A stretch of 64,000 nt of DNA from an uncultured Candidatus Saccharibacteria bacterium (GTDB lineage Bacteria; Patescibacteriota; Minisyncoccia; Phycocordibacterales; JACOZG01): NCBI GenBank assembly GCA_965230925.1, contig OZ246403.1:458455-522454 (forward strand). Reading direction: 5' to 3'. Of the stretch, positions 5,692-62,130 are shown in pieces. The position numbers and the translations under genes are program-made. How positions within the stretch are numbered: position 1 is the stretch's first letter; each line of letters begins with the position of its first letter. The notes beneath the pieces were generated by a model. That model saw nothing but the letters and a program-made list of their open reading frames with translations. It had not been told where the DNA came from and made no database searches.

Positions 5692-5720
5692 TGTACTTTA
5701 GAGGTCGGACAAAAATTTTA

Positions 5721-5793
5721 CGGGGTATGGTGTAACGGCTAACATACTCGCTTTGGGAGCGAGCGACTCTGGGTTCGAATCCCAGTACCCCGA
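5721..5793 (+). tRNA. tRNA-Pro (anticodon TGG)
   Basis: Acceptor CGGGGTA/TACCCCG (C1-G72, typical of Pro), anticodon stem CTCGC/GCGAG with loop TTTGGGA (G37), T-arm CTGGG-TTCGAAT-CCCAG. 73 nt. Confidence 0.75.
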
Positions 5794-5908
5794 TACTCGA
5801 GTTTCTCGATTAGTTATCCACAACTGTCTTTTATGTCCCTTATAATAATTTTGTAGTACAATGAACGCCACTAGGTGGGGAGAAAATTATTAGCTTAGTT
5901 TCTTTACA

Positions 5909-8900
5909 ATGATTGTTAAAAAAGTTCTCGGGATTTTTTTTGTCTTAGCTCTTAGTTTAACGGTGGTTGAGGCACAGGCAGTAAATTCTTCCCCGCATTC
6001 TCAAGGTGGTTTAATTTGGGAATTACTTTCCCGGATCAATCAAATTTCTTTGCTTAGTCAGGCTGGTTGTTCAACAAACACCCCGCCAGCTCCAAGTATT
6101 AGCGTGCCAGTAAATAATTTTTCTGGTGTAGTTGGAACCCCGGTATCTTTTAGTGGTTCCGCTACAGATTCTGGTGGATCAATTTCCATCACCAGTTACA
6201 GTTGGAATTTTGGCGACAGCACTTCTGCTGGTGGTACTAGTGCGAATCATGTTTATGCAACACCTGGTCAGAAAACAGTAACGCTTACTGCAAACGATTG
6301 GTGTGGGGCTTCTGGTTCGACTAATATTTCTATAACAATTAACTCGTCGACTCCGACCAATGCCCCTGCTTCCGTTAATGCTGGCGCGGATCAAAATATT
6401 TCTTCTCTCGGTTTTCCAACTGTAAATCTAAACGCCGCAGTGACCGACGACGGTTTGCCCAATCCTCCTGGTGCTTTAACTTATACTTGGCAGCAGGTGA
6501 GTGGTCCTGCAGGCTCTGTTTTTACTGGGGCCTCGACGCTTAACCCCTCAGTTGCTCTAATGGGTTTTGGTACTTATGTTTTTCGTTTAACGGTTTGGGA
6601 TGGGGCAGTCCAGTCTTACGATGAGGTTTCTGTGACAGCAAATCAGTCAGCCAACAATCCTCCTACTGTTAATGCTGGCACTGATCAGTCTGTTGTTTTT
6701 CCAGCCAGCGCTACGCTTAGTGGCTCGGTTAGCGATGATAACTCCGCTAATCCTTATCGAGTGTGGACGAAAACTAGTGGACCAGGAACCGTTACTTTTT
6801 CTTCACCTTCCAGTAATAGTCCGCTTGCGACCTTTTCTGGGGTTGGTGTTTATGTTTTAAGATTAACAGCAAATGATGGTTTTTTGGAATCTTTTGATGA
6901 GGTTACTGTAACGGTAAACAGTCAAACAAACACTGCCCCGACCGCGTCCGCAGGCTCAGACCGCTCGGTAACTGGTTCAACTGGACCATTTGTTTTCACG
7001 ATCAACAACACTGCCTCTGTTTACGACGATGGTTTGCCTAATCCGCCAGGATCAGTTACTCAAACTTGGACGAAAGTGAGTGGTCCAGGAACTGTAACCT
7101 TCACTCCGAGTAACACTACGCTTCGCCCCACCGTTTCTTTGTCTTTGGCTGGAACCTATGTTTTACGCTTAACCGCGAGTGACAGTGTTCTTTCTGACGA
7201 TGATGAAATGACAGTAACGGTGAATCAGCCGAACAACACCCCAACGGTTGATGCCGGCCCCAATCGAACAATTTATTCATATCAAACCAACTCCGCGTCA
7301 CTTGACGGTACGGTAAATGATGATGGCCTACCTAATCCTCCTGGTGCGCTTGCAACAACATGGACAAAAGTAAGTGGTCCAGGAACAGTAACATTTGCCA
7401 ACGCTTCAAGCGTTGATACTACCGCCACCTTTAGTCAGGCTGGAACCTATGGTTTGCGATTAACCGTTTCCGACGGTTCACTTTCTGCAAACGATACGAT
7501 GACCGTTTTCTATTGGCAGAATAATCCGCCTACGGCAAATGCTGGTCCGGATCAAAATCTTTCTTTTCCTCAAGCACCAGCAATAGTTCCTTTGAGCCCC
7601 TCCGCTTCCAATCCCGATGGTTTGCCTGTTGGTGGGCAGCTTCACTTTGATTGGATTAAAGTCAGTGGACCAGGTAATGCCACCTTTAGTAATTCTGGAG
7701 GCACTTGGCCACCGAATTCTTCACCCTCAGTTACTTTATCTCAATTTGGTAGTTATATTTTGCGCCTGCTCATATCAGACGGGTCTACAAGCTTAGGAGG
7801 TCTCTCGTCGTCTGACGACGTTGCCATCACCATTTCTTCTGGTGGCAATGTTAATACTCCTCCAACGGTAAATGCTGTGGCTGAACCAGCCATAATAACT
7901 CTGCCGACCAGCCAAGTTCTACTAAACGGTACTGTTGCCGACAATAATCTTTCTCTTGTAAGTTATTTGTGGACTAAGGTTAGTGGTCCTACCACTGGTT
8001 CCACCATTGTTTCGCCCACCCAAGTTGATACTAATGTTACCTTCACTCAAGCGGGGACGTACAAATTTAAATTAACAGTCAATGATTCTGGTGTGCCGCC
8101 GTTTAATAACATCTCTTCTCCAGAAGTTACGGTAACCGTAAACCCGGTGAATCAGTGTGCTGGCAATCTTCCTCCTCTGGTTAGCGCTGGGCCGGATCGA
8201 ACAGCCACAGCTGGTGTTTTGATTACGCTTACTGGTTCTTCTTCTGATCCTAATGGTAACAACACTATTACTAACCATGCTTGGAACTTTGGTGATGGTT
8301 CTGCCACCTTTAATGCGCCAAACGCAGTGGCGATGCACACTTTTGCCGTGGCGGGCACTTACAATGTAACTCTTACAGTGACTGATGGATGCCACTCGGT
8401 GAGTGATGAAACTCAAGTAGTCGTTGCTCCACCTCAGCCGAGCAATCAGGCTCCGCAAGCTGGATTGTTGACGGCCAATCCATCCGTTCTTGCCCTGCCC
8501 CTCAACACTCTTAACTTAAGTGTTCCGATAACTGATGATTTGTTGCCCGCACCACATTCAGTGACCACAACCTGGTCACAAGTAAGTGGTCCAGCAACGG
8601 GAACCACCTTTAATCCACCTGTTAGTCAGAGTGCTTTAGCGAGCTTTACTGCTACCACCGCGGTTACTTTGCCTAGTGTTTCAGGGGACTATGTCTTTAG
8701 GGCTTCAATCTCTGATGGTTCGGGTTTGCCTGCAGTTATTCGCGAAGTTACCGTAGCTCTCGGTCCTCCAGTTGCTGGTCCCTGTGATAATAATCAGGCG
8801 CCGACGGCAAATCTTACTGGGCCGACCACTGGTCTTGTGGGGCAAACCCTTACATTTAGCGCCGACGGATCAACTACGGGAAGCAATGGCATGAATGAAA

Positions 8901-11900
8901 ACGGCCAATCTCTCAATGGCTACTGGTTTAATTGGGGTACTGGTTTCACCGGTTGGCAAACCAGCTCCACCTTAGAGCGAGTGTTTACTTCCGTTGGTAC
9001 CTATGTAATCAAACTTTGGGTCAGGGATACTTGCGCAACCAACAACGTTTCTCCTGTTGATGAACTCTCGTTGATTGTTAATAGCTCCGGACCTTCTAAT
9101 ACCGCTCCTGTGATTTCTGGATTTACCGCTGACCAGTTCTCTGTTACTTTGCCAAACAGAACCGTAACCTTAAGCGCGCAAATTTCTGACGATCGTTTAC
9201 CCAATCCGCCCGCACAAATTACCGTAGACTGGTCGCAAGTCGGGGGGACAGAAATTACCACCTTTACCAATGACCCTCAGGTCAATTCTACTGGCAATTT
9301 CACCGCAACTAGCGTTGCTACCTTGCCCAATGTTCCTGGTCTTTATATTTTGCAAGTGTCTGCCGCCGATGGTTCAGCTTTGCCAGCTGCCACGAGTCAA
9401 ATTCTCGTGATGGTAAATTCTCCGCTTCCTACTAACCAGCCTCCAGTGGTTACTGCTTCAGCCATGCCAGCAGAAATTTCTTTACCACTGAATCAGGTTG
9501 CTCTTGCGGGTAATTATACCGATGATAACTTGCCCACAGGGAGAACCATTACTACGACGTGGTCCGTTGATGAGGCGCCACAAGGAAGTTTTGTTCTCTT
9601 TGGTAACCCAGCTGCGCTTAACACCACGGCTACCTTTTCTCCTGTTGCCGGGACTTATAAGCTTAAGTTAACCGCCACGGAATTCCTCAACGGAAGCCCT
9701 GTTCTTTCTGGTGTTTCTGTAGCCACTGTGTTGGTGAACCCAATTACTGACCCCTGTATCGGCAACACGCCACCTTCCGCTAACGCCGGTTTTGACCAAA
9801 GTGTTGCTGAGGATTCATTGGTTAGTTTCAACGGTACTTTGTCGGCAGATGTTGGTGGTTCCATTTCTACCTACTCCTGGAACTTTGGTGATGGTGGTAC
9901 TGGAAGCGGAGCAACACCCACCCACATTTACACCACTTCCGGAACTTATGTCGCCACTCTTACGGTGACTGATAATTGTGGGGCCACTCATTCTGATACC
10001 GCAACCATTGTTGTTACAAGTTCAGCTCCCGCCCAGATTCCCCCAAGGGTTAATGCCGGCGTTGATCAGTTTAATCTTTCTTTTCCCACTACCGTTTCTT
10101 TGAGCGGAACGGTTTCTGGTTTTCCCTCGGGCTACTCAAAGTTGTGGACTAAAGTTGCGGGGCCAGGAACAGTTTCCTTCAGTTCCCCTAACAGTTTACA
10201 GACCACTGCAACGTTTTCGTCGGCCGGTTTCTATGCCCTCAAATTAACTGTTACATCTGGAAGCCTTGTGGTGTCAGATATCGTTGAGGTTATCTTTAAT
10301 CAAGCGGTATCAGTGAGCGCTGGTGTCGATAGATCCCTAAACTTGGCTACTAGCAATCATCAAGGTTCACTCACTTTCGATGCCTCGGTTACTGCCAGTG
10401 ACCCGTCACCATTGTCGTATTCTTGGTCACAGGTATCTGGTCCCCAAGCCTTAACTATTACTAATAGCCAGGTTCTCGATGCGACAGTCAGCGCTAACAA
10501 GGCCGGTACTTATGTTTTGCGCCTAACCGTTTCTGGTCCTGGAGTTGTTCCTTCAAACGATACAGTCACCTTGTCAGTTAGAGACCTTGAAGCTGGGTCT
10601 AATCAGAATATTGTTTTGCCTGCTTCGGTTGCTTTGTCGGGAACGGCAAGTAATTTTCCTACAGGTACTACTTATCAGTGGACACAGTTTTCTGGTCCTG
10701 CTGGTGGTTCGGCTTTCTCAAGTCAAAATAGCTTAAACACAAACGTCAGTTTTTCTCAGAGTGGGACATATCAATTGCGCTTAACCGCGACGCCTCTGGG
10801 GGAGTCTCCAATCTACGATACAGTACAAGTTGGTGTTGCTGTTGTGGGGAGTTTGGGGGTTGATGCTGGTTCTGACCAATTGAACACAACCTTCACTTCC
10901 CCGTCAGTTACTAGAAATCTAAACGGTGTTGTGGTTAATGCTCCAGTTGGTACCACTTATAAATGGACAAAAGCATCTGGGCCTTCTGGTGGTGCTCAAC
11001 CGACCTTTTCTCCAAGTGATGTGGTTTTGAACCCCGTTGTTACCCTGTATCAAACTGGAAGTTACACGTTCCAACTCAAAGCCACTCCGCCTAGTGGGCT
11101 TGCGGTATTAGATACGGTGTCTATTACGTTTAATGTTAATCCAACCAACATTTCGGTAGAAGCTTCACCAAACTATTTGACTTGGCCACAGAACTCTACG
11201 AATCTAAACATTAATTTTTCCGACAGTAATCCCGAGAGTGTGAGTGGTTTGTGGACTCAGTTTCAAGGGCCAATTGGTCAGGCAAGCTTTGCTAGCCCGA
11301 ATTCGTTTGACACCACGGTTACTTTTGGACAAGTTGGGAACTATGATCTTCGAATGACTATTGATGATGGTTTGGCTTATGATCCTCAGATTACTCGAGA
11401 AGTTAAGGTCTACCCGGCTTGTGGTGTTGGTAATCAAAAACCAACAGCCTTTGCGAGTGCCGACCAGTGGGTTCAGGTGAACCATGGTGTCGCGCTCTCA
11501 CCCTTTTCTTCTGTTGGTATTGGTTCTGCTGGATACACACCTTCAACTGACAGTGATGGCGTGATTACCAGTTATTATTGGGATTTTGGCGATGGTTCTT
11601 TCAGCGTTGAGGGTAGTACGAACCATTCTTACACCCAGGTTGGTACCTATAATGCTACGCTTACTGTGGCTGATAACTGCGGCTTGATTGATACTGAAGA
11701 AGTGGTGGTCCATGTGGTACCAGTTAATCCAGGTGCGTTTAATCCAGTTTTGAAATCTTACAGGCTAGAAGCCTATCACCCGGCTACTGGTGAAGAGGTT
11801 TGGACGGAACTTTCCGGATCAGTTGTTTCTGTTGAAACTGGAGATTTGTTACGTCTCGACCTTTTGTCTGGGGCGGGAGGTATTGGACTTTCCACCTGGA

Positions 11901-13081
11901 CAATCGGTAATCAAAATGTGGAGATAACGCAAAGTGGGTTGGTGCAAAAAGTGAAGTTTCTCTCTCCTAGTTTATTGACCAATCCAGCCAGTGTAATGGT
12001 TTATCCCGATGATTACAGCTCCTCTGTTGTTCTGAGTAAAAACTTTGACGTCAACAATGTAATGGACGAAGTTGGTGTTGGTCCGGGGATTCATCTTTCT
12101 GCTAGGGAGATGACTGTAAATGAAAATGGTTCCTTGGCTTGGGCTATTCATAGTGAGCCAAATCCCTGCACTCCTGGTGATACTTTTGGCCCACAGTGTA
12201 TGACCTTAACCCAGCTCGATTTGAGTGACGAGGATAATATTACTGTAAATGAATATATGCCAAACACAATTTCTAATCCAACTTCCCTCGCCTATTCTCA
12301 TGACCATCTTTACCTTAGAGATGGAATTAATATTAAAGTTTTTGGTGTTTCTGCCAACTCCGCTCCCCAATATCAGGGAACTTATAATTTAGGAAACTCC
12401 TCTACTGGTGGAGTTTATAAAGGAGTGGCCGCAAGGGGTCAAGTATTGTTCTCTACGGCAGGAAACCTTGGATTGAAAGTGCTCGATTTAAGACAAACAC
12501 CAACTCTTTCTCTTTTAGGTCAGACTTCATTGCCTGGTGGAGAGGTGGCAAATGTCCTCTTCTTAGATGGTAATAAGCTATATGTTGGTGGCGCTAACAA
12601 TAAAGTTCACATCTTCGACATATCTTGCTTGGGTGATTTAGAGGCGCCAAGTGCTTGTAATCCAAACATCATTGGGTCTGTGGATGTTGGTAGTAATATT
12701 AGTTTCTTAGCCAAGACCGGGTTTGGTGGTCATGATTATGTTCTGGTTTACACTTACTCTGGAGTGAAGGTTTATGATATTACTAACCTGGGTCAAATTG
12801 TTCAGGTAGGAGAGTTTAGTCCGTATCAAGTGTTTGGAGCTAATGCAACTGGGGTTCTGGCTTTTGGCAACAAGTTATATTTTGGCTTTAGTCCAACCAA
12901 CCTTAATTATGGAACAAGTGTTGCTCGTATAAACCTTGCAAATCCAAGTGAGATCTATGCCATGGAATGGATTTCTACGCTAACGGCCGGAGGTAATAAG
13001 CAAATGATTCATCAGAACGGGAAGCTCTATGTAACGAGTGATACCAACGATATTATTATCCTTGATTTGCTAAACGAATAG
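5909..13081 (+). CDS. 2390-aa secreted multi-domain surface protein (signal peptide; about 14 Ig-like 'DDGLPNPPG...W.KVSGPG...LRLTVSDG' domains; about 4 PKD domains; C-terminal LVIVD-like beta-propeller)
   Basis: Single uninterrupted 7.2-kb ORF. N-terminal signal peptide MIVKKVLGIFFVLALSLTVVEAQA. Repeated ~100-aa modules begin with N(A/V)G.DQ and carry DDGLPNPP and TWTKVSGPGTVTF motifs. PKD signatures: SYSWNFGDSTS, HAWNFGDGSATF, YSWNFGDGGTGS, YYWDFGDGSFS. The C-terminal 400 aa carry propeller-like repeats (KVHIFDIS, GVKVYDITNLG). Confidence 0.85.
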   Translation: MIVKKVLGIFFVLALSLTVVEAQAVNSSPHSQGGLIWELLSRINQISLLSQAGCSTNTPPAPSISVPVNNFSGVVGTPVSFSGSATDSGGSISITSYSWNFGDSTSAGGTSANHVYATPGQKTVTLTANDWCGASGSTNISITINSSTPTNAPASVNAGADQNISSLGFPTVNLNAAVTDDGLPNPPGALTYTWQQVSGPAGSVFTGASTLNPSVALMGFGTYVFRLTVWDGAVQSYDEVSVTANQSANNPPTVNAGTDQSVVFPASATLSGSVSDDNSANPYRVWTKTSGPGTVTFSSPSSNSPLATFSGVGVYVLRLTANDGFLESFDEVTVTVNSQTNTAPTASAGSDRSVTGSTGPFVFTINNTASVYDDGLPNPPGSVTQTWTKVSGPGTVTFTPSNTTLRPTVSLSLAGTYVLRLTASDSVLSDDDEMTVTVNQPNNTPTVDAGPNRTIYSYQTNSASLDGTVNDDGLPNPPGALATTWTKVSGPGTVTFANASSVDTTATFSQAGTYGLRLTVSDGSLSANDTMTVFYWQNNPPTANAGPDQNLSFPQAPAIVPLSPSASNPDGLPVGGQLHFDWIKVSGPGNATFSNSGGTWPPNSSPSVTLSQFGSYILRLLISDGSTSLGGLSSSDDVAITISSGGNVNTPPTVNAVAEPAIITLPTSQVLLNGTVADNNLSLVSYLWTKVSGPTTGSTIVSPTQVDTNVTFTQAGTYKFKLTVNDSGVPPFNNISSPEVTVTVNPVNQCAGNLPPLVSAGPDRTATAGVLITLTGSSSDPNGNNTITNHAWNFGDGSATFNAPNAVAMHTFAVAGTYNVTLTVTDGCHSVSDETQVVVAPPQPSNQAPQAGLLTANPSVLALPLNTLNLSVPITDDLLPAPHSVTTTWSQVSGPATGTTFNPPVSQSALASFTATTAVTLPSVSGDYVFRASISDGSGLPAVIREVTVALGPPVAGPCDNNQAPTANLTGPTTGLVGQTLTFSADGSTTGSNGMNENGQSLNGYWFNWGTGFTGWQTSSTLERVFTSVGTYVIKLWVRDTCATNNVSPVDELSLIVNSSGPSNTAPVISGFTADQFSVTLPNRTVTLSAQISDDRLPNPPAQITVDWSQVGGTEITTFTNDPQVNSTGNFTATSVATLPNVPGLYILQVSAADGSALPAATSQILVMVNSPLPTNQPPVVTASAMPAEISLPLNQVALAGNYTDDNLPTGRTITTTWSVDEAPQGSFVLFGNPAALNTTATFSPVAGTYKLKLTATEFLNGSPVLSGVSVATVLVNPITDPCIGNTPPSANAGFDQSVAEDSLVSFNGTLSADVGGSISTYSWNFGDGGTGSGATPTHIYTTSGTYVATLTVTDNCGATHSDTATIVVTSSAPAQIPPRVNAGVDQFNLSFPTTVSLSGTVSGFPSGYSKLWTKVAGPGTVSFSSPNSLQTTATFSSAGFYALKLTVTSGSLVVSDIVEVIFNQAVSVSAGVDRSLNLATSNHQGSLTFDASVTASDPSPLSYSWSQVSGPQALTITNSQVLDATVSANKAGTYVLRLTVSGPGVVPSNDTVTLSVRDLEAGSNQNIVLPASVALSGTASNFPTGTTYQWTQFSGPAGGSAFSSQNSLNTNVSFSQSGTYQLRLTATPLGESPIYDTVQVGVAVVGSLGVDAGSDQLNTTFTSPSVTRNLNGVVVNAPVGTTYKWTKASGPSGGAQPTFSPSDVVLNPVVTLYQTGSYTFQLKATPPSGLAVLDTVSITFNVNPTNISVEASPNYLTWPQNSTNLNINFSDSNPESVSGLWTQFQGPIGQASFASPNSFDTTVTFGQVGNYDLRMTIDDGLAYDPQITREVKVYPACGVGNQKPTAFASADQWVQVNHGVALSPFSSVGIGSAGYTPSTDSDGVITSYYWDFGDGSFSVEGSTNHSYTQVGTYNATLTVADNCGLIDTEEVVVHVVPVNPGAFNPVLKSYRLEAYHPATGEEVWTELSGSVVSVETGDLLRLDLLSGAGGIGLSTWTIGNQNVEITQSGLVQKVKFLSPSLLTNPASVMVYPDDYSSSVVLSKNFDVNNVMDEVGVGPGIHLSAREMTVNENGSLAWAIHSEPNPCTPGDTFGPQCMTLTQLDLSDEDNITVNEYMPNTISNPTSLAYSHDHLYLRDGINIKVFGVSANSAPQYQGTYNLGNSSTGGVYKGVAARGQVLFSTAGNLGLKVLDLRQTPTLSLLGQTSLPGGEVANVLFLDGNKLYVGGANNKVHIFDISCLGDLEAPSACNPNIIGSVDVGSNISFLAKTGFGGHDYVLVYTYSGVKVYDITNLGQIVQVGEFSPYQVFGANATGVLAFGNKLYFGFSPTNLNYGTSVARINLANPSEIYAMEWISTLTAGGNKQMIHQNGKLYVTSDTNDIIILDLLNE

Positions 13082-13113
13082 GCAGCTAAAGATCTTTCTG
13101 CTATTCTGACTCG

Positions 13114-13131
13114 GCGAAGACTCTTCGCTTT
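13114..13131 (+). terminator. weak stem-loop after the 2390-aa protein gene
   Basis: GCGAAGA-c-TCTTCGC inverted repeat followed by TTT. Stem and T-run are short. Confidence 0.3.
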
Positions 13132-13136
13132 AGTCA

Positions 13137-13207
13137 CGGGCTGTAGTATACCGGTAGTACGCGCCCATGGGGTGGGTGTAGACCGGGTTCGATTCCCGGC
13201 AGCCCGA
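13137..13207 (+). tRNA. tRNA-Pro (anticodon GGG)
   Basis: Acceptor CGGGCTG/CAGCCCG, U8, D-arm GTAT...GTAC, anticodon stem CGCCC/GGGTG (one G-U pair) with loop ATGGGGT, T-arm CCGGG-TTCGATT-CCCGG, discriminator A. 71 nt. Confidence 0.65.
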
Positions 13208-13222
13208 AGGTTATAATTAGTT

Positions 13223-23024: not shown

Positions 23025-23078
23025 ATGTCTTGCGAGCATAAATTCAAATTGACCGAAGGTGGCGGGTTGTTACAATAA
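23025..23078 (+). pseudogene. degraded duplicate of the 5' end of the 23450 fibre gene (17-codon remnant MSCEHKFKLTEGGGLLQ*)
   Basis: The sequence 23008-23060 (aattagtttttaacccATGTCTtgcgagcataaattcaaattgacc) parallels 23437-23490 (aataatttttaacccATGTCTcaagagaaaaaatttaaattaacg), including the start codon. It encodes MSCEHKFKLTE versus MSQEKKFKLTQ and then terminates. Confidence 0.55.
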
Positions 23079-23082
23079 GTAT

Positions 23083-23439
23083 ATGGGAAAAGAAATCACA
23101 CTCGAATCTCTTGATAATAAGATAGATAGCAAATTTGGCACGCTTGATTCTAAGTTTACATCCCTTGATGCCAAGTTTAATTCCCTCGACACGAAATTTG
23201 ATGTGCTTCAGGAAGTCTTACAAGACAACTTTAAGATTATTGCTGAGCAGTTTAAGACGGTAAATGAGAAGTTAGACCGACACGAAGTGAAACTGGACCA
23301 ACACGACAAGAGATTTGATCAAATTGAGATTAGATTAGATGAACATGAAAGAAAACTCGACTCTTTGACGGAAGTAGTTGGTGATATTAAAGTCGAAGTT
23401 ATGGGCTTGAACCACAGAGTAGAAGTTTTAGAAAAATAA
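23083..23439 (+). CDS. heptad-repeat coiled-coil protein, hypothetical
   Basis: Tandem 7-residue repeats KIDSKFG/TLDSKFT/SLDAKFN/SLDTKFD followed by further coiled-coil sequence. Probable start MGKEITLESL; the track ORF starts 8 codons earlier. Confidence 0.5.
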   Translation: MGKEITLESLDNKIDSKFGTLDSKFTSLDAKFNSLDTKFDVLQEVLQDNFKIIAEQFKTVNEKLDRHEVKLDQHDKRFDQIEIRLDEHERKLDSLTEVVGDIKVEVMGLNHRVEVLEK

Positions 23440-50130: not shown

Positions 50131-50159
50131 TTGACGCCGCTATAGCGGTTTGCTAGTAT
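50131..50159 (+). promoter_or_regulatory. candidate sigma70-type promoter for tuf and the S10 operon: TTGACG-17-TAGTAT, with a 12-bp perfect palindrome in the spacer
   Basis: TTGACG at 50131-50136; 17-nt spacer ccgctatagcggtttgc, which contains the palindrome CCGCTATAGCGG; TAGTAT at 50154-50159. Confidence 0.5.
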
Positions 50160-50246: not shown

Positions 50247-51449
<1,203 letters not shown>

Positions 51450-54124: not shown

Positions 54125-54487
54125 ATGACTAGATCACTTAAAAAAGGACCATTCATTGATCCTAAGCTGCTCAAGAAAATTACCGGCCATAAGCCGGGTG
54201 GTTCTGCGGTGATAAAAACCTGGTCTCGCGCTAGTCAGATTAGCCCGGAAATGGTGGGTTTTACCTTTGGCGTTCACAATGGTCGGGAGCATTTGCCGGT
54301 TCTTGTGGTTGAGGAAATGGTTGGTCATCGCTTAGGGGAATTTAGCCCGACGCGAAAGTTTATTCGTCATGGTGGTAAGATGCAGAAGGAGCTCGAACAG
54401 AAGAAGAAAGAGGCTGAAATTGCGGCCGCTAAGGCGTCTAAAGAACCGGCAGCAGCCGCCGGGGGTACCGCCGCGGCGAAGAAATAA
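54125..54487 (+). CDS. rpsS: 30S ribosomal protein S19 with Lys/Ala-rich C-terminal extension
   Basis: [16 protein letters not shown]...[25 protein letters not shown] is S19. An extra ~30-aa [21 protein letters not shown] tail follows. 120 aa. Confidence 0.9.
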
Positions 54488-56706: not shown

Positions 56707-57012
56707 ATGGCTTTAACTCTCAAAAAAAATGATGTGGTGGCGGTAATGACCGGTAAAGACAAGGGGAAAACAGGGAAAATTCTCCGGGTATTGCCCGACC
56801 GAGTAATTGTGGAAGGAGTGAATCTTCGCAAGCGCCGCGAGAAGGCTCGCCGCTCTGGGACGAAGGGGCAAGTGGTAGAGGTGCCGAGTCCGGTTCATCG
56901 CTCGAATGTTCTCCTCTATTGTTCGGCCTGCAAGAAAGGGGTGCGTTTTGGCCAGAAAATCTCGGGGAAGAAGAAGATCCGAGTTTGCAAGAAGTGTGGC
57001 CGGGAGCTCTAA
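56707..57012 (+). CDS. rplX: 50S ribosomal protein L24 with C-terminal CxxC...CxxC zinc-ribbon extension
   Basis: KOW region LKKNDVVAVMTGKDKGKTGKILRVLPD. An extra C-terminal CSACKKGVRFGQKISGKKKIRVCKKCGREL follows. 101 aa. Confidence 0.85.
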   Translation: MALTLKKNDVVAVMTGKDKGKTGKILRVLPDRVIVEGVNLRKRREKARRSGTKGQVVEVPSPVHRSNVLLYCSACKKGVRFGQKISGKKKIRVCKKCGREL

Positions 57013-57022
57013 ACTTTAAACC

Positions 57023-57556
57023 ATGAAATTACTGAAAGAAAAATTAAAAGCCGCCCTTCCTGAACTCGAGAAGACTCTCGGGATTAAGAATCATCTGGCT
57101 TTACCGCGGATTACTAAGGTGGTGATTAGCTCGGGTACCGGAAAGGCCAAGGACAAGAAGCGCAATGAGCTTGTGTCTGATCGCTTGAACAAAATTACTG
57201 GTCAGAAGGTGTCACCTCGGGGAGCTAAGAAATCAATTGCCTCCTTCAAGTCTCGCCAGGGAGATATTATTGGCCAGGCGGTTACCTTGCGTGGTGCGCG
57301 GATGTATCACTTCTTGGATCGTTTGTTAAATATTTCCATTCCGCGTATTCGTGACTTCCGCGGCTTTGATGATAAAAGTGTAGATGAGATCGGGAACCTA
57401 ACTATTGGTATCCGGGAGCACACCGTTTTCCCTGAGACCGCTGATGAGGACCTTAAAGACGTTTTCGGCTTCGCTGTCACCATTGTTACTACCGCCAAGA
57501 ATCGTAACCAAGCCCTGGCTCTCTTCCGAGCTATCAACTTCCCGTTTAAAAAGTAG
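57023..57556 (+). CDS. rplE: 50S ribosomal protein L5
   Basis: Conserved position and L5 motifs (ITKVVISSGTGKAK...GNLTIGIREHTVFPE). 177 aa. Confidence 0.9.
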   Translation: MKLLKEKLKAALPELEKTLGIKNHLALPRITKVVISSGTGKAKDKKRNELVSDRLNKITGQKVSPRGAKKSIASFKSRQGDIIGQAVTLRGARMYHFLDRLLNISIPRIRDFRGFDDKSVDEIGNLTIGIREHTVFPETADEDLKDVFGFAVTIVTTAKNRNQALALFRAINFPFKK

Positions 57557-57598
57557 TTGCTACAATTAACTAGTTCGTTTATTAACTAGTTAATTTTT

Positions 57599-58123
57599 AT
57601 GAAAAAATATCTATTAGCCGCCCTCGGCTTATTTTTAGTAGCTGGTGTGGCTTCGGCCCAAACAGGGTCACTTTATTATTTGCTCCAACGTATTAGTAAT
57701 CTTGCTGGTCAGACGGCTAGGGTGTCTGAATCTGTTACTGCTGAGCCATTAGCACCGGACCTTACGTCCACTTTGGGGTCCTCTCAGATCAACACAGATA
57801 ATAATCTTGTTTCTACTAGTAATAGTAGCGTCAGTGGCCCCGTGAGTGGTTACCAGGTTGTTCTCAACGAAGTCGTTAATACTGGTAGTACGGTTAATGT
57901 TACTTGCCCAAGCGGCAAGACTGTTTTGGGTGGGGGGTGCAATCTTGGTAGTGCTGTCTATCCACCTGGATGGAATGGCCCTGCACATTTTTATTCTTTG
58001 GAGGATTCTTTTCCAATCTCTGCTGTCAGTGCGGGGGTGGGGATTTGGTCTTGTTCGTGGAATGGCCCGACCGACCTTCCCTACAGGAAACAGGCTATAG
58101 CTATTTGTGCGAACGTTCAGTAA
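57599..58123 (+). CDS. secreted cysteine-containing protein of unknown function, inserted between rplE and rpsN
   Basis: Signal peptide MKKYLLAALGLFLVAGVASAQ. Ser/Thr/Asn-rich mature region with 4 Cys (TCPSG, GGGCN, WSCSWNG, ICANVQ). 174 aa. Preceded by two palindromic TTAACTAGTTAA-type motifs. Confidence 0.6.
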   Translation: MKKYLLAALGLFLVAGVASAQTGSLYYLLQRISNLAGQTARVSESVTAEPLAPDLTSTLGSSQINTDNNLVSTSNSSVSGPVSGYQVVLNEVVNTGSTVNVTCPSGKTVLGGGCNLGSAVYPPGWNGPAHFYSLEDSFPISAVSAGVGIWSCSWNGPTDLPYRKQAIAICANVQ

Positions 58124-58180
58124 TTAAACCAAGGATTTGACTTGAAGGCGCCGCTTTGTTAGCATAGTGGCGCTTTCCTT

Positions 58181-58366
58181 ATGGCTAAAACTTCAGTCAT
58201 TGCGAGGGCCCAAAAGCCCCCGAAGTTTAGTACTCGCCTCGTGCGGCGTTGTTTTCGCTGCGGTCGGAAGCGGGCGTTTATGCGTGACTTTGAGTTGTGC
58301 CGCATTTGCTTCCGGGAATTAGCCAATGAGGGTAAAATCCCGGGAATTCGTAAATCTTCTTGGTAA
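58181..58366 (+). CDS. rpsN: 30S ribosomal protein S14 type Z (zinc-binding)
   Basis: 61 aa with [24 protein letters not shown] (CxxC...CxxC) typical of type-Z S14. Confidence 0.9.
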
Positions 58367-58367
58367 T

Positions 58368-58760
58368 ATGTTATCCGATCCTATTGCTGACATGTTGATT
58401 CGGTTGAAGAACGGCGCCGCCGCTGGCCGTGGGGTAATAGAGGTGCCTCTTTCTAATCTCCGAGCCGAGATTGCCCGAGTGCTCCAAGAGGCTGGTTATG
58501 TAAAGTCGGTGAATAAGAAAGGGAAAAAAGGCCGTAAGTTCTTAGAACTCGAACTGACGAAGATTGGGAACAATTTTAAACTCCGTGGTGCCACTCGAGT
58601 TTCCAAGCCCTCGCGCCGGGTTTATCAAGGCTTCCGTGATCTTCGCTCGGTGAAGCAGGGGACTGGTTATGCCGTGCTCTCGACGCCTCAAGGAGTAATG
58701 ACCGGCATAGATGCTCGGAAAAAAGGTCTTGGCGGCGAGGTCTTATTTAAAATCTGGTAA
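58368..58760 (+). CDS. rpsH: 30S ribosomal protein S8
   Basis: MLSDPIADMLIRLKNGAAAGRGVIEVPLSNL is the S8 N-terminus. The ATG is 1 nt after the rpsN stop; the track ORF starts 14 codons earlier, inside rpsN. Confidence 0.9.
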   Translation: MLSDPIADMLIRLKNGAAAGRGVIEVPLSNLRAEIARVLQEAGYVKSVNKKGKKGRKFLELELTKIGNNFKLRGATRVSKPSRRVYQGFRDLRSVKQGTGYAVLSTPQGVMTGIDARKKGLGGEVLFKIW

Positions 58761-60199: not shown

Positions 60200-60634
60200 A
60201 TGCAATTACATAATCTCAAACGCCCTCGCACGCTCCAGTCTAAGAAGACCGTTGGTCGCGGTGGTAAGCGTGGTACTACTTCCGGTCGTGGAACCAAGGG
60301 GCAGAAGGCCCGCGCTGGACACCGAATGCGACCAGAACTCAGAGATACGATTAAGAAACTGCCTAAGAATCGCGGTTATACTTTCTTTGGGCCAATTAAC
60401 CAGAAGCCGCAAACAGTAACCTTGGGGGCGGTTAACGGTGCTTTTGCGGCTGGTGGTCTCGTGACTCCGCAAACACTTGCTAAGCTCGGCTTGGTGCGCC
60501 GGGCGAAAGGAATATTACTTGCCGTGAAGGTTCTTGGTGGAGGAGTTGTGGACCGAGCGCTTACCTTTGAGCGGGTCACCGTGGCCGCTTCCGCTCGTGC
60601 TAAAATTGAGACCGCAGGAGGAAAGATTAAATGA
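60200..60634 (+). CDS. rplO: 50S ribosomal protein L15
   Basis: LHNLKRPRTLQSKKTVGRGGKRGTTSGRGTKGQKARAG matches L15. 144 aa. Confidence 0.9.
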   Translation: MQLHNLKRPRTLQSKKTVGRGGKRGTTSGRGTKGQKARAGHRMRPELRDTIKKLPKNRGYTFFGPINQKPQTVTLGAVNGAFAAGGLVTPQTLAKLGLVRRAKGILLAVKVLGGGVVDRALTFERVTVAASARAKIETAGGKIK

Positions 60635-61926: not shown

Positions 61927-62130
61927 ATGGCTCAAATCGTTTTTAACTCCGATGGGGAGTATTCTCGAGGTTCCGGTTCTCGTAATTTTAGTCGCGGAGG
62001 TATGGCCGGTTGGTTGAAACGAGTTTCGGGCGGAATTATTCCTACCGAGCAAGCTGCTAATTGGGTTTTGTTTTTTATTGCCGTAGTTATTTTTGCTATT
62101 GCCGCTTTGATTCTTTTCCGTAGTCTTTAG
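61927..62130 (+). CDS. small membrane protein, hypothetical
   Basis: 67 aa. Gly/Ser/Arg-rich N-terminus and a C-terminal transmembrane helix (NWVLFFIAVVIFAIAALILF). Lies between secY and adk. Confidence 0.35.
   Translation: MAQIVFNSDGEYSRGSGSRNFSRGGMAGWLKRVSGGIIPTEQAANWVLFFIAVVIFAIAALILFRSL

Follow-up and report, generated by a model that had tools for sequence, protein, structure and literature searches.

A secreted four-cysteine protein encoded in a variable slot between rplE and rpsN in the ribosomal-protein cluster of a Patescibacteriota genome

The S10-spc gene order is among the most conserved in prokaryotes, and the insertions known from ribosomal-protein clusters are small sets of unrelated genes placed between transcription units, after which synteny relaxes and the flanks are sometimes fully disconnected. 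In the Gammaproteobacteria and Bacilli, the reported insertions lie between str and S10 or between rpoBC and str, and the junction of rplE (encoding L5) with rpsN (encoding S14) is internal to spc. Ribosomal proteins are also mentioned in predicted genomic islands, in a report that does not cover the L5-S14 junction (PMC12455944). Here, we consider a stretch of 64,000 nucleotides (the window) from an uncultured Candidatus Saccharibacteria bacterium (assembly GCA_965230925.1, contig OZ246403.1, positions 458,455 to 522,454 of the forward strand), in which an open reading frame (ORF) of 174 amino acids lies between rplE and rpsN. As in the known cases, small sets of unrelated genes are found between transcription units, S14 is missing within 2.5 kb in 14 related loci and secE-nusG stands after rplE in L086 and L014; unlike in the Gammaproteobacteria and Bacilli, the boundary in the Paceibacteria lies at rplE-rpsN itself. 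With moderate confidence, we read the ORF as a genuine accessory gene for an exported head-domain protein, placed in a variable inter-operon slot with a compact terminator-promoter module. The three genes concerned are:

57023–57556, + strand: rplE (uL5), Pfam Ribosomal_L5 and L5_C (E 1e-30), the final gene of the upstream ribosomal-protein unit.
57599–58123, + strand: the ORF, 174 amino acids, with a predicted signal peptide (57599–57658), a helix and linker (57659–57832) and a head domain including the stop codon (57833–58123).
58181–58366, + strand: rpsN (uS14, 61-amino-acid Zn-ribbon form), Pfam Ribosomal_S14 (E 1e-22), which opens the unit rpsN-rpsH-rplF...secY-adk-map.

The initial annotation took the L5-S14 junction to be normally contiguous, a view that comparative synteny does not support for this lineage. 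We measured every junction from S3 to S5 in 80 related loci (GTDB species); the closest L5 proteins among GTDB species representatives are 55–72% identical to that of the window and belong to Paceibacteria (Parcubacteria; Vogel-, Taylor-, Zambryski-, Nomura- and Kaiserbacteria and other Paceibacterota). The L5-S14 gap, 624 bp in the window, has a median of 781 bp and exceeds 150 bp in 44 of 51 related Paceibacteria loci. A further 14 loci have no S14 in the following 2.5 kb or more, which brings the interrupted junctions to 58 of 65 assessable species loci (~89%); the remaining junctions from S3 to S5 have median gaps of 7–109 bp. The contents of the gap are highly variable, with 126 of 165 gap ORFs being singletons. 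By Pfam, the cargo includes secreted PG_binding_1 proteins, Metallophos_2, MazE/MazF and PhdYeFM toxin-antitoxin genes, a Peptidase_S74 fibre protein, a response regulator with PilM/N/O, a branched-chain amino-acid permease, a cytidylate-kinase-like protein with TruB, a lipase-like secreted protein, ParB_N and secE-nusG. Even the four closest relatives show four different junction states:

L086 (L5 89% identical): rplE followed by secE-nusG.
L083 (L5 81% identical): no insert, only a 52-nt spacer.
L087 (L5 79% identical): a homologue of the ORF after rplE.
L088 (L5 75% identical): PG_binding_1 and Metallophos genes after rplE.

A contiguous spc operon, in the sense of a short rplE-rpsN gap with neither terminator nor promoter between the genes, is not found in the window and is not typical of its relatives. 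Judged by synteny, interruption at this junction is normal for the lineage, and the feature is real but largely ordinary. The literature searched yielded no report of an L5-S14 split in bacteria of the candidate phyla radiation (CPR), nor was a lineage-wide S10-spc split at rplE-rpsN found described there.

Some further details of the slot deserve mention. In L086 (813–1628), secE-nusG stands directly after rplE and is followed by another partial gene, and in L014 (3547–4707) secE-nusG-rplK lies further downstream of rplE; in both, the break point is the same but the cluster has been put back together in another way. Among the cargo, a Metallophos_2 phosphoesterase (MKIAIISDxHDN...) is the most persistent; it is missing from the slot in the window genome and lies immediately 5′ of the rpsN promoter in L003, L004, L006, L007, L088 and L112 (neighbouring clade). 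A crude hydrophobicity rule counted signal-peptide or membrane proteins directly after rplE in 21 of 54 cases; this count had no proper control, and we make no claim of enrichment.

The junction is bounded by a predicted rplE terminator and a predicted rpsN promoter. Specifically, when a stem with at least three G-C pairs followed by a T-run was sought within 120 nt past the rplE stop, terminator-like hairpins were found in 44 of 77 loci, compared with 15 of 462 control windows taken inside the upstream operon. The motif TTGACN-17/18-TAGNAT, sought within 100 nt 5′ of rpsN, precedes this gene in 20 of 51 relatives, L083 included, against a background of 0.0036 per 100 nt, and a scan of both strands of the window returned only two sites, at 50131 and 58137. 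In the insert-free L083, the hairpin and the rpsN promoter both fit within the 52-nt spacer. The corresponding features of the window are:

50131–50159, + strand: promoter-like site TTGACG-17-TAGTAT, before the tuf/S10...rplE unit, in the 164-nt intergenic region 5′ of an ORF at 50247.
58137–58165, + strand: predicted rpsN promoter TTGACT-17-TAGCAT with TG at −15/−14, from the promoter scan; it has the 17-nt-spaced −35 and −10 hexamers of a sigma-70-type promoter at a position conserved among relatives.
58144–58177, + strand: GC-rich hairpin with UUUCCUU on its 3′ side and a folding energy of −22 to −25 kcal/mol (z −3.4 to −3.8), which encloses the rpsN −10 element.

Because a predicted terminator follows rplE and a predicted promoter precedes rpsN, the ORF falls between two transcription units and not inside one. 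In Paceibacteria, tuf/S10...rplE and rpsN...secY would be separate transcription units, and the space between them would serve as a slot for variable cargo. The ORF product is an accessory secreted protein encoded in an inter-operon spacer, not a ribosome-coupled factor. The hairpin at 58144–58177, although missed by the consensus terminator scans, may serve as a terminator of the ORF transcript.

Nine relatives (L003 at 6856–6893, L004, L006, L007, L013, L029, L088, L089 and L112) share another, small hairpin past the rpsN promoter, GGCUC-N4-GAGCC (AGCUC/GAGCU in one compensatory variant), and a U-rich run separates it from the AUG. Possible functions are attenuation in the rpsN leader and binding of a ribosomal protein. 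The rpsN leader of the window and of L083 is only 15 nt long and does not contain this hairpin.

Between the rplE stop and the ORF lie 42 nt (57557–57598), where the initial annotation had noted two copies of a self-complementary motif. This observation is borne out: exact copies of TTAACTAGTT stand at 57566 and 57582, the second of which widens to the 12-mer palindrome TTAACTAGTTAA. Because TTAACTAGTT is self-complementary, its two copies also make a perfect 12-bp inverted repeat, with arms AATTAACTAGTT and AACTAGTTAATT separated by 8 nt and followed by UUUUU and then the AUG. The RNA fold of this hairpin (−10.5 kcal/mol, z = −4.8) is beyond chance, with 0 of 200 shuffles as good. The spacer thus contains two overlapping features:

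57558–57566, + strand: TGCTACAAT, the predicted extended −10 promoter of the ORF; its conserved counterpart in L087 is TGTTACAAT.
57564–57575 and 57584–57595, + strand: arms of the 12-bp hairpin (loop 57576–57583, feature to 57598), a perfect inverted repeat followed by a U-tract.

The hairpin starts 8 nt past the rplE stop, ends 3 nt before the AUG and occupies the site where relatives have rplE terminators. Like an intrinsic terminator, it is a stem-loop with an immediate U-tract past a stop codon; its stem is not G+C-rich, as only 2 of its 12 pairs are G-C.

It is informative to compare this spacer with that of L087, a locus from sequencing run SRR20718478 whose contig ends 27 codons into the ORF homologue, so that only the N-terminus of the protein is available. 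The window reads ...TTGCTACAATTAACTAGTTcgtttattAACTAGTTAATTTTTATGAAAAAATAT... across the spacer and L087 reads ...TTGTTACAATTAATGCGCTtgacttattAGCGCGTTAATTTTTTATGAAAAAATAT..., the 42-nt region being 67% identical between them, compared with 44% for rplE at third codon positions. L087 keeps the whole 12-pair stem: three pairs are changed on both sides and one goes from C-G to U·G, giving a stem with 5 G-C pairs and about −13 to −14 kcal/mol, followed by UUUUUU. The U·G pair argues for structure at the level of RNA. These changes also bear on the suggestion in the initial annotation that the palindromes are an operator. If so, a dimeric repressor would control the ORF by binding TTAACTAGTT(AA) at two positions with centres 16 bp apart, and the presence of two exact copies, one a perfect 12-mer palindrome, overlapping the predicted promoter and start region where operators typically lie, is what such a reading would lead one to expect. 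However, the L087 arms AATTAATGCGCT and AGCGCGTTAATT are no longer self-complementary yet still pair with each other, at one position through a T·G combination that pairs in RNA only, so that the hairpin is kept by compensatory changes that break the palindromes. In addition, the 64-kb window contains no further copies of the motif beyond chance (two other AACTAGTT cores lie inside ORFs), and no regulator gene is adjacent. We consider operator function improbable; as read from these two spacers, the conserved element is a hairpin with a U-tract and not a pair of operator-like palindromes.

Several other candidate structures were encountered in the window and its relatives. In L007, the hairpin that precedes the first gap gene resembles that of the window but was rejected, being no better than shuffled sequence (z +0.7), and an Rfam search of 56900–58500 at a permissive threshold gave no match. 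At 57616–57639, 17 nt past the ATG and within the signal-peptide coding region, there is a short GC-rich hairpin with a T-run (AGCCGCCCTCGGCT TATTTTT), which is not kept in L087 and is probably due to chance. Finally, a GC-rich element that forms a strong hairpin (CACCCCGCC...CCCCTCCTC-loop-GAGGAGGGGTTGGGGGAGGTTGT) is absent from the window and present in L087 (1531–1620), between rplE and the ORF homologue, and in L089 (1427–1485), between the ORF homologue and rpsN. A repeat element and a terminator lacking a T-tail are both possible readings.

The element directly past the rplE stop suggests how the ORF might be transcribed. Upstream of the ORF, TGnTAnAAT lies 5′ of the start codon and is kept in the orthologous locus, as would be expected of an extended −10 promoter. 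The window contains seven matches to TGNTANAAT, all correctly oriented and 6–32 nt 5′ of a candidate start codon: five TGnTAnAAT sites lie 6–11 nt before start codons (21035, 23068, 25407, 35510 and 50091 (minus)), a sixth lies 24 nt before secY (60598) and the seventh lies 32 nt before the ORF. The same motif is found directly after rplE terminators in L003, L004, L039 and L089. An alternative promoter reading, TTGCTA-17-TATTAA, places a −10 element that lacks the conserved final T in the hairpin loop, and was replaced by the conserved TGnTACAAT.

Since the −10 element ends at 57566, the predicted transcription start is at ~57572, inside the 5′ arm of the hairpin. Transcripts reading through from rplE would form the full 12-bp hairpin with its U-tract, which would act as a weak terminator, and transcripts of the ORF, started inside the 5′ arm from TGCTACAAT, would escape termination; without most of the 5′ arm the full hairpin cannot form, and transcription would therefore continue. 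The ORF transcript would then be ended by the GC-rich hairpin with its U-rich tail at 58144–58177, and the rpsN promoter, with its −10 element in the loop of this second hairpin, would restart ribosomal-protein transcription, rpsN transcripts beginning in the 3′ arm. On this evidence, the ORF is probably its own small, insulated transcription unit. The initial annotation had proposed co-transcription with ribosomal proteins, and the extended −10 element past the rplE stop, together with the GC-rich hairpin and rpsN promoter past the ORF, argues otherwise, although both hairpins may leak, which would allow some co-transcription.

A related alternative is that the hairpin belongs to the 5′ untranslated region (UTR) of the ORF, affecting translation or mRNA stability, with transcription starting further upstream or reading through from rplE, so that the ORF is co-expressed and attenuated. 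In keeping with this, 3 nt separate the hairpin from the AUG, which lacks a Shine-Dalgarno sequence, the structure and U-tract are kept in L087, the weak stem (−10.5 kcal/mol, 2 G-C pairs) makes read-through plausible, and a consensus scan found no two-hexamer sigma-70 promoter in the spacer. However, TGnTACAAT is kept in both genomes and elsewhere in the window lies 6–24 nt before start codons, which points to a start inside the 5′ arm, and most relatives have a clear terminator after rplE. We regard a 5′ UTR element as rather unlikely and prefer the insulated unit described above.

Intrinsic terminators that overlap the next promoter provide a close parallel. As here, a stop codon is followed directly by a hairpin and U-tract, and promoter elements of the next unit lie within the hairpin or next to it; among these loci, this is illustrated by the −35 element in the loop (L083), the −10 element in the loop before rpsN (window) and a terminator followed by TGCTATAAT (L003). 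Unlike these, the stem upstream of the ORF is AT-rich (2 of 12 pairs G-C) and the promoter is upstream rather than downstream of the hairpin; its function is a prediction.

Other instances of the extended −10 motif are of separate interest. The five sites 6–11 nt before starts imply that this genome has many mRNAs with little or no leader. The GTG at 23059 is probably not the true start of the ORF annotated at 23059–23439, as an ATG at 23083, 6 nt past TTGACC-N15-TGTTACAAT, would suit a leaderless mRNA. Within the 3′ end of rplO, the site at 60598 precedes a GGAGG Shine-Dalgarno sequence and may serve as an internal promoter of secY.

The protein encoded in the slot was described in the initial annotation as a signal-peptide protein of 174 amino acids, rich in Ser/Thr/Asn and with four Cys, between rplE and rpsN. 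The gene is genuine, as supported by its remote homologues. Its parts are:

57599–57658, + strand: predicted signal peptide, residues 1–20, with predicted cleavage between ASA and Q; by inspection, with a helix over residues 3–16 in the AlphaFold2 (AF2) model.
57659–57832, + strand: short helix (residues 24–37) and disordered Ser/Thr/Asn-rich linker (residues 38–78); AF2, with a predicted local distance difference test score (pLDDT) below 50 for residues 36–75.
57833–58123 including the stop codon, + strand: C-terminal six-stranded β domain, residues 79–174; AF2 pLDDT 84–90, signature GYxVV...CPxGKxVLGGGC...WxCxW...AICAN.

By inspection, the N-terminus (MKKYLLAALGLFLVAGVASA, then QT after the cleavage point) has a positive n-region (MKK), a 14-residue hydrophobic core (YLLAALGLFLVAGV) and an A-x-A site; these n- and h-regions, the small residues at −3 and −1 and the lack of a lipobox fit a Sec substrate of signal peptidase I, and no Cys occurs before residue 103. 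The L087 homologue begins with MKKYILVVAGLLLIAGTASAQT. A helix just past the signal peptide, analogous to that of the ORF product, occurs in the junction proteins P0010, L003 and L113. Ser, Thr and Asn make up 27% of residues, and the four Cys are at positions 103, 114, 152 and 170.

A word-indexed homology search with the ORF returned only the ORF itself, and exact matches to the protein come from this organism's own contigs only (a 716-kb contig at NCBI, and contigs identical to the window in the sequencing runs SRR12822861 and SRR12816581). An exhaustive HMMER search of 1.8 billion cluster representatives identified 15 real remote homologues, all aligned to residues ~79–174; P0002 was discarded, as its match covered only the low-complexity N-terminal part. 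These define a head domain of ~90 amino acids with the family signature GYxVV...CPxGKxVLGGG...W...AxCA. A profile of this domain retrieves more than 583 proteins from Actinobacteria (Streptomyces), Acidobacteria, CPR bacteria, an archaeal contig and other sources, all annotated as hypothetical and with no Pfam model over the domain. For the ORF itself, Pfam returned only DUF6216, at E 0.048 and 13 bits against a cut-off of 27, which does not place it in that family; NCBIfam returned nothing relevant, and the homologues likewise have no model over the domain. The head-domain family is large, without a model in the family databases searched, and uncharacterised in function.

The window protein is a clear member of this family. 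It scores 80.7 bits (E 4e-23) against the profile of alignment A1, which contains the window sequence itself. C103, G111–G113, A168 and C170 are invariant in all alignments (A1, A2 and A3), and G84, Y85, P104, G106, K107 and W150 are invariant or at least 90% conserved, all being present in the window protein. C103 and C170 occur in 65 of 65 sequences, and C114 and C152 are always both present or both absent across A1 and A2; this co-occurrence points to disulfides C103-C170 and C114-C152, in agreement with the earlier proposal of a secreted and probably disulfide-bonded protein. A subgroup with all four Cys (the GGGC and WxCxW pair) comprises the window protein, P0005, P0008, P0010, P0015 and P0017. 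The last of these, found in L090–L092, is a 146-amino-acid membrane-anchored protein with the same 4-Cys head on a groundwater contig with archaeal-type genes (eIF-2α, S13_N, DHH); the head domain would therefore occur in both bacterial and archaeal genomes.

The architecture of homologues offers some insight into what the head may do. Some family members have three, sometimes five, tandem copies of the domain; in a few, a C-terminal copy follows collagen repeats (PF01391), and in a 757-amino-acid protein (L102) it follows fibre-like GNVGIGTTAP repeats. Combinations with dockerin or SBBP β-propeller repeats also occur. From this architecture, the head is most likely a stalk-and-head extracellular or cell-surface binding module, adhesin or lectin-like, and a host-interaction or surface role is a reasonable guess from the domain architecture of homologues alone.

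Recurrent sub-threshold Foldseek matches are to the PCSK9 C-terminal and resistin modules, H-type lectins, R-pyocin and phage tail-fibre tips, and APCβ. Resistin carries its head on an N-terminal helix, and the C-terminal domain of PCSK9 consists of three tandem modules. Like these, the head is a small disulfide-stabilised six-stranded β-sandwich, and many members of its family have three tandem copies; unlike them, it has another Cys pattern, and with E 0.26–3, template-modelling (TM) scores of 0.44–0.48 and 15–22% identity it falls short of a resistin-like or PCSK9 module (TM at least 0.5, E at most 1e-3 and the disulfide pattern), so that this is a resemblance and not evidence of homology. 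By two independent methods, the top PDB match is to APCβ of apicomplexan perforin-like protein 1 (7pln, 5ouo, 6d7a), with Foldseek E 0.096, a sequence-profile E of 0.35 and a shared CPxGxVVxGG motif in the alignment. Neither score is significant, however, the match drops to rank 19 with a domain-only model, and APCβ is part of a pore-forming toxin of eukaryotes. The C-terminal heads or tips of collagen-like proteins and of phage tail fibres share the stalk-plus-head plan of the family, and matches in BFVD are to tail-fibre, structural and collagen-repeat proteins, with probability up to 0.99; yet the best E, 2e-3, is above the 1e-3 cut-off, and the window protein has only a 14-residue helix and disordered linker in place of a fibre, and no phage context.

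Homologues of the ORF are found in the slot in other genomes as well. In L089, from a mid-distance relative (S14 84%, S8 50% and L6 58% identical), the order is rplE, a PhdYeFM toxin-antitoxin pair, P0010 and rpsN; P0010 (254 amino acids) has the same signal peptide, helix and 4-Cys head and lies directly 5′ of the rpsN promoter. With L087, this brings to three the genomes in which the slot holds the ORF or a homologue. Searches with the ORF sequence and the domain profile within ±4 kb of rplE found no homologue in the 80 GTDB species loci. A metagenome scan with the 4-Cys alignment gave 19 loci, none near ribosomal genes; likewise, P0015 adjoins a gene for a tetratricopeptide repeat (TPR) protein and P0017 lies in an archaeal-type context, neither of them near ribosomal genes.

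This distribution might suggest a recent foreign insertion, be it the scar of a mobile element or miniature inverted-repeat transposable element (MITE), as the initial annotation had entertained, or a recent horizontal acquisition by this genome. It is true that the exact protein is known only from this organism's contigs and that the gene is absent at the junction both in the relatives with L5 89%, 81% and 75% identical and in all 80 GTDB species loci. Against this, composition is native to the genome: the GC content of the ORF (0.475) equals the window mean (0.475; z = −0.2) and matches that of rplE (0.473), contradicting the claim that the ORF is more AT-rich than the flanking ribosomal genes, with a z of −1.2 for GC at third codon positions and of −0.66 for codon usage, the latter inside 0.7 standard deviations of other genes. 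No direct or inverted repeats flank the ORF, no transposase or integrase genes lie beside it in the ribosomal-protein cluster, and the palindrome has no further copies; within the 64-kb window (of a genome of ~0.7 Mb), the terminal inverted repeats, target-site duplication and multiple copies of a MITE, insertion sequence or scar were not found. Moreover, L087 has a homologous gene start, promoter and hairpin at the same place, and in the more distant L089 the slot likewise holds a homologue. Descent from an ancestral gene, with many losses or replacements, therefore fits better, and we consider a recent insertion very improbable. The evidence fits the ORF being an old resident of the slot, often lost or replaced, with lateral exchange a possibility.

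In weighing our reading of the locus, a number of observations count against it. The promoter, the transcription start and both terminators are predictions from sequence. The number of TGNTANAAT matches is that expected by chance (7 observed, 7.7 expected), and their placement alone is non-random. The consensus terminator scan missed the hairpin at 57564–57598 because only 2 of its 12 pairs are G-C, and the covariation comes from two sequences, with 57 of 500 shuffles matching the observed score. Foldseek gave no significant match (best PDB E 0.1–0.3, best BFVD E 2e-3), no anchoring motif is seen in the protein, which may be attached to the surface or released, and the domain is found at the junction in only 2–3 of about 95 Paceibacteria loci.

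For the ORF alone the result is modest. More broadly, the S10-spc order is split at one fixed point in the sampled Paceibacteria, which matters for reading ribosomal-protein synteny blocks and contig breaks in metagenome-assembled genomes, and points to rplE-rpsN as a place where lineage-specific surface proteins accumulate. The head-domain family, with more than 580 proteins, could be given a domain entry of its own and tested as a binding module. We tentatively raise, as a doubtful possibility, that rplE-rpsN is a class-wide cargo slot of Paceibacteria in which surface proteins, toxin-antitoxin pairs and accessory genes come and go, and that the 4-Cys head is an undescribed receptor-binding module of episymbionts. 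Homology-facilitated recombination through the conserved ribosomal-gene flanks might exchange the cargo. PG_binding_1 proteins, Peptidase_S74 fibres, the 4-Cys head and toxin-antitoxin pairs would be acquired, replaced and lost time and again in a small variable island between two of the genome's most conserved genes. A receptor-binding role in ultra-small episymbionts is suggested because the 4-Cys head also occurs in a DPANN-like archaeal contig (L090).

On the + strand, the cluster as a whole reads tuf/S10 ... L24, L5, ORF, S14, S8, L6, L18, S5, L15, SecY, a 67-amino-acid ORF, Adk and Map. The 67-amino-acid ORF (61927–62130), between secY and adk, is a second small non-ribosomal gene in the cluster; it has a hydrophobic segment at its C-terminus, and a 63-amino-acid gene occupies its position in L083 and L084. 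Among the ribosomal proteins, uL24 (56707–57012) has a C-terminal CxxC...CxxC tail with weak zinc-ribbon Pfam matches, and uS19 (54125–54487) has an Ala/Lys-rich C-terminal extension of 30 amino acids. Elsewhere in the window, an ORF of 2390 amino acids (5909–13081) is bordered on both sides by intergenic regions (5692–5908 and 13082–13222) that contain tRNA-like sequences.

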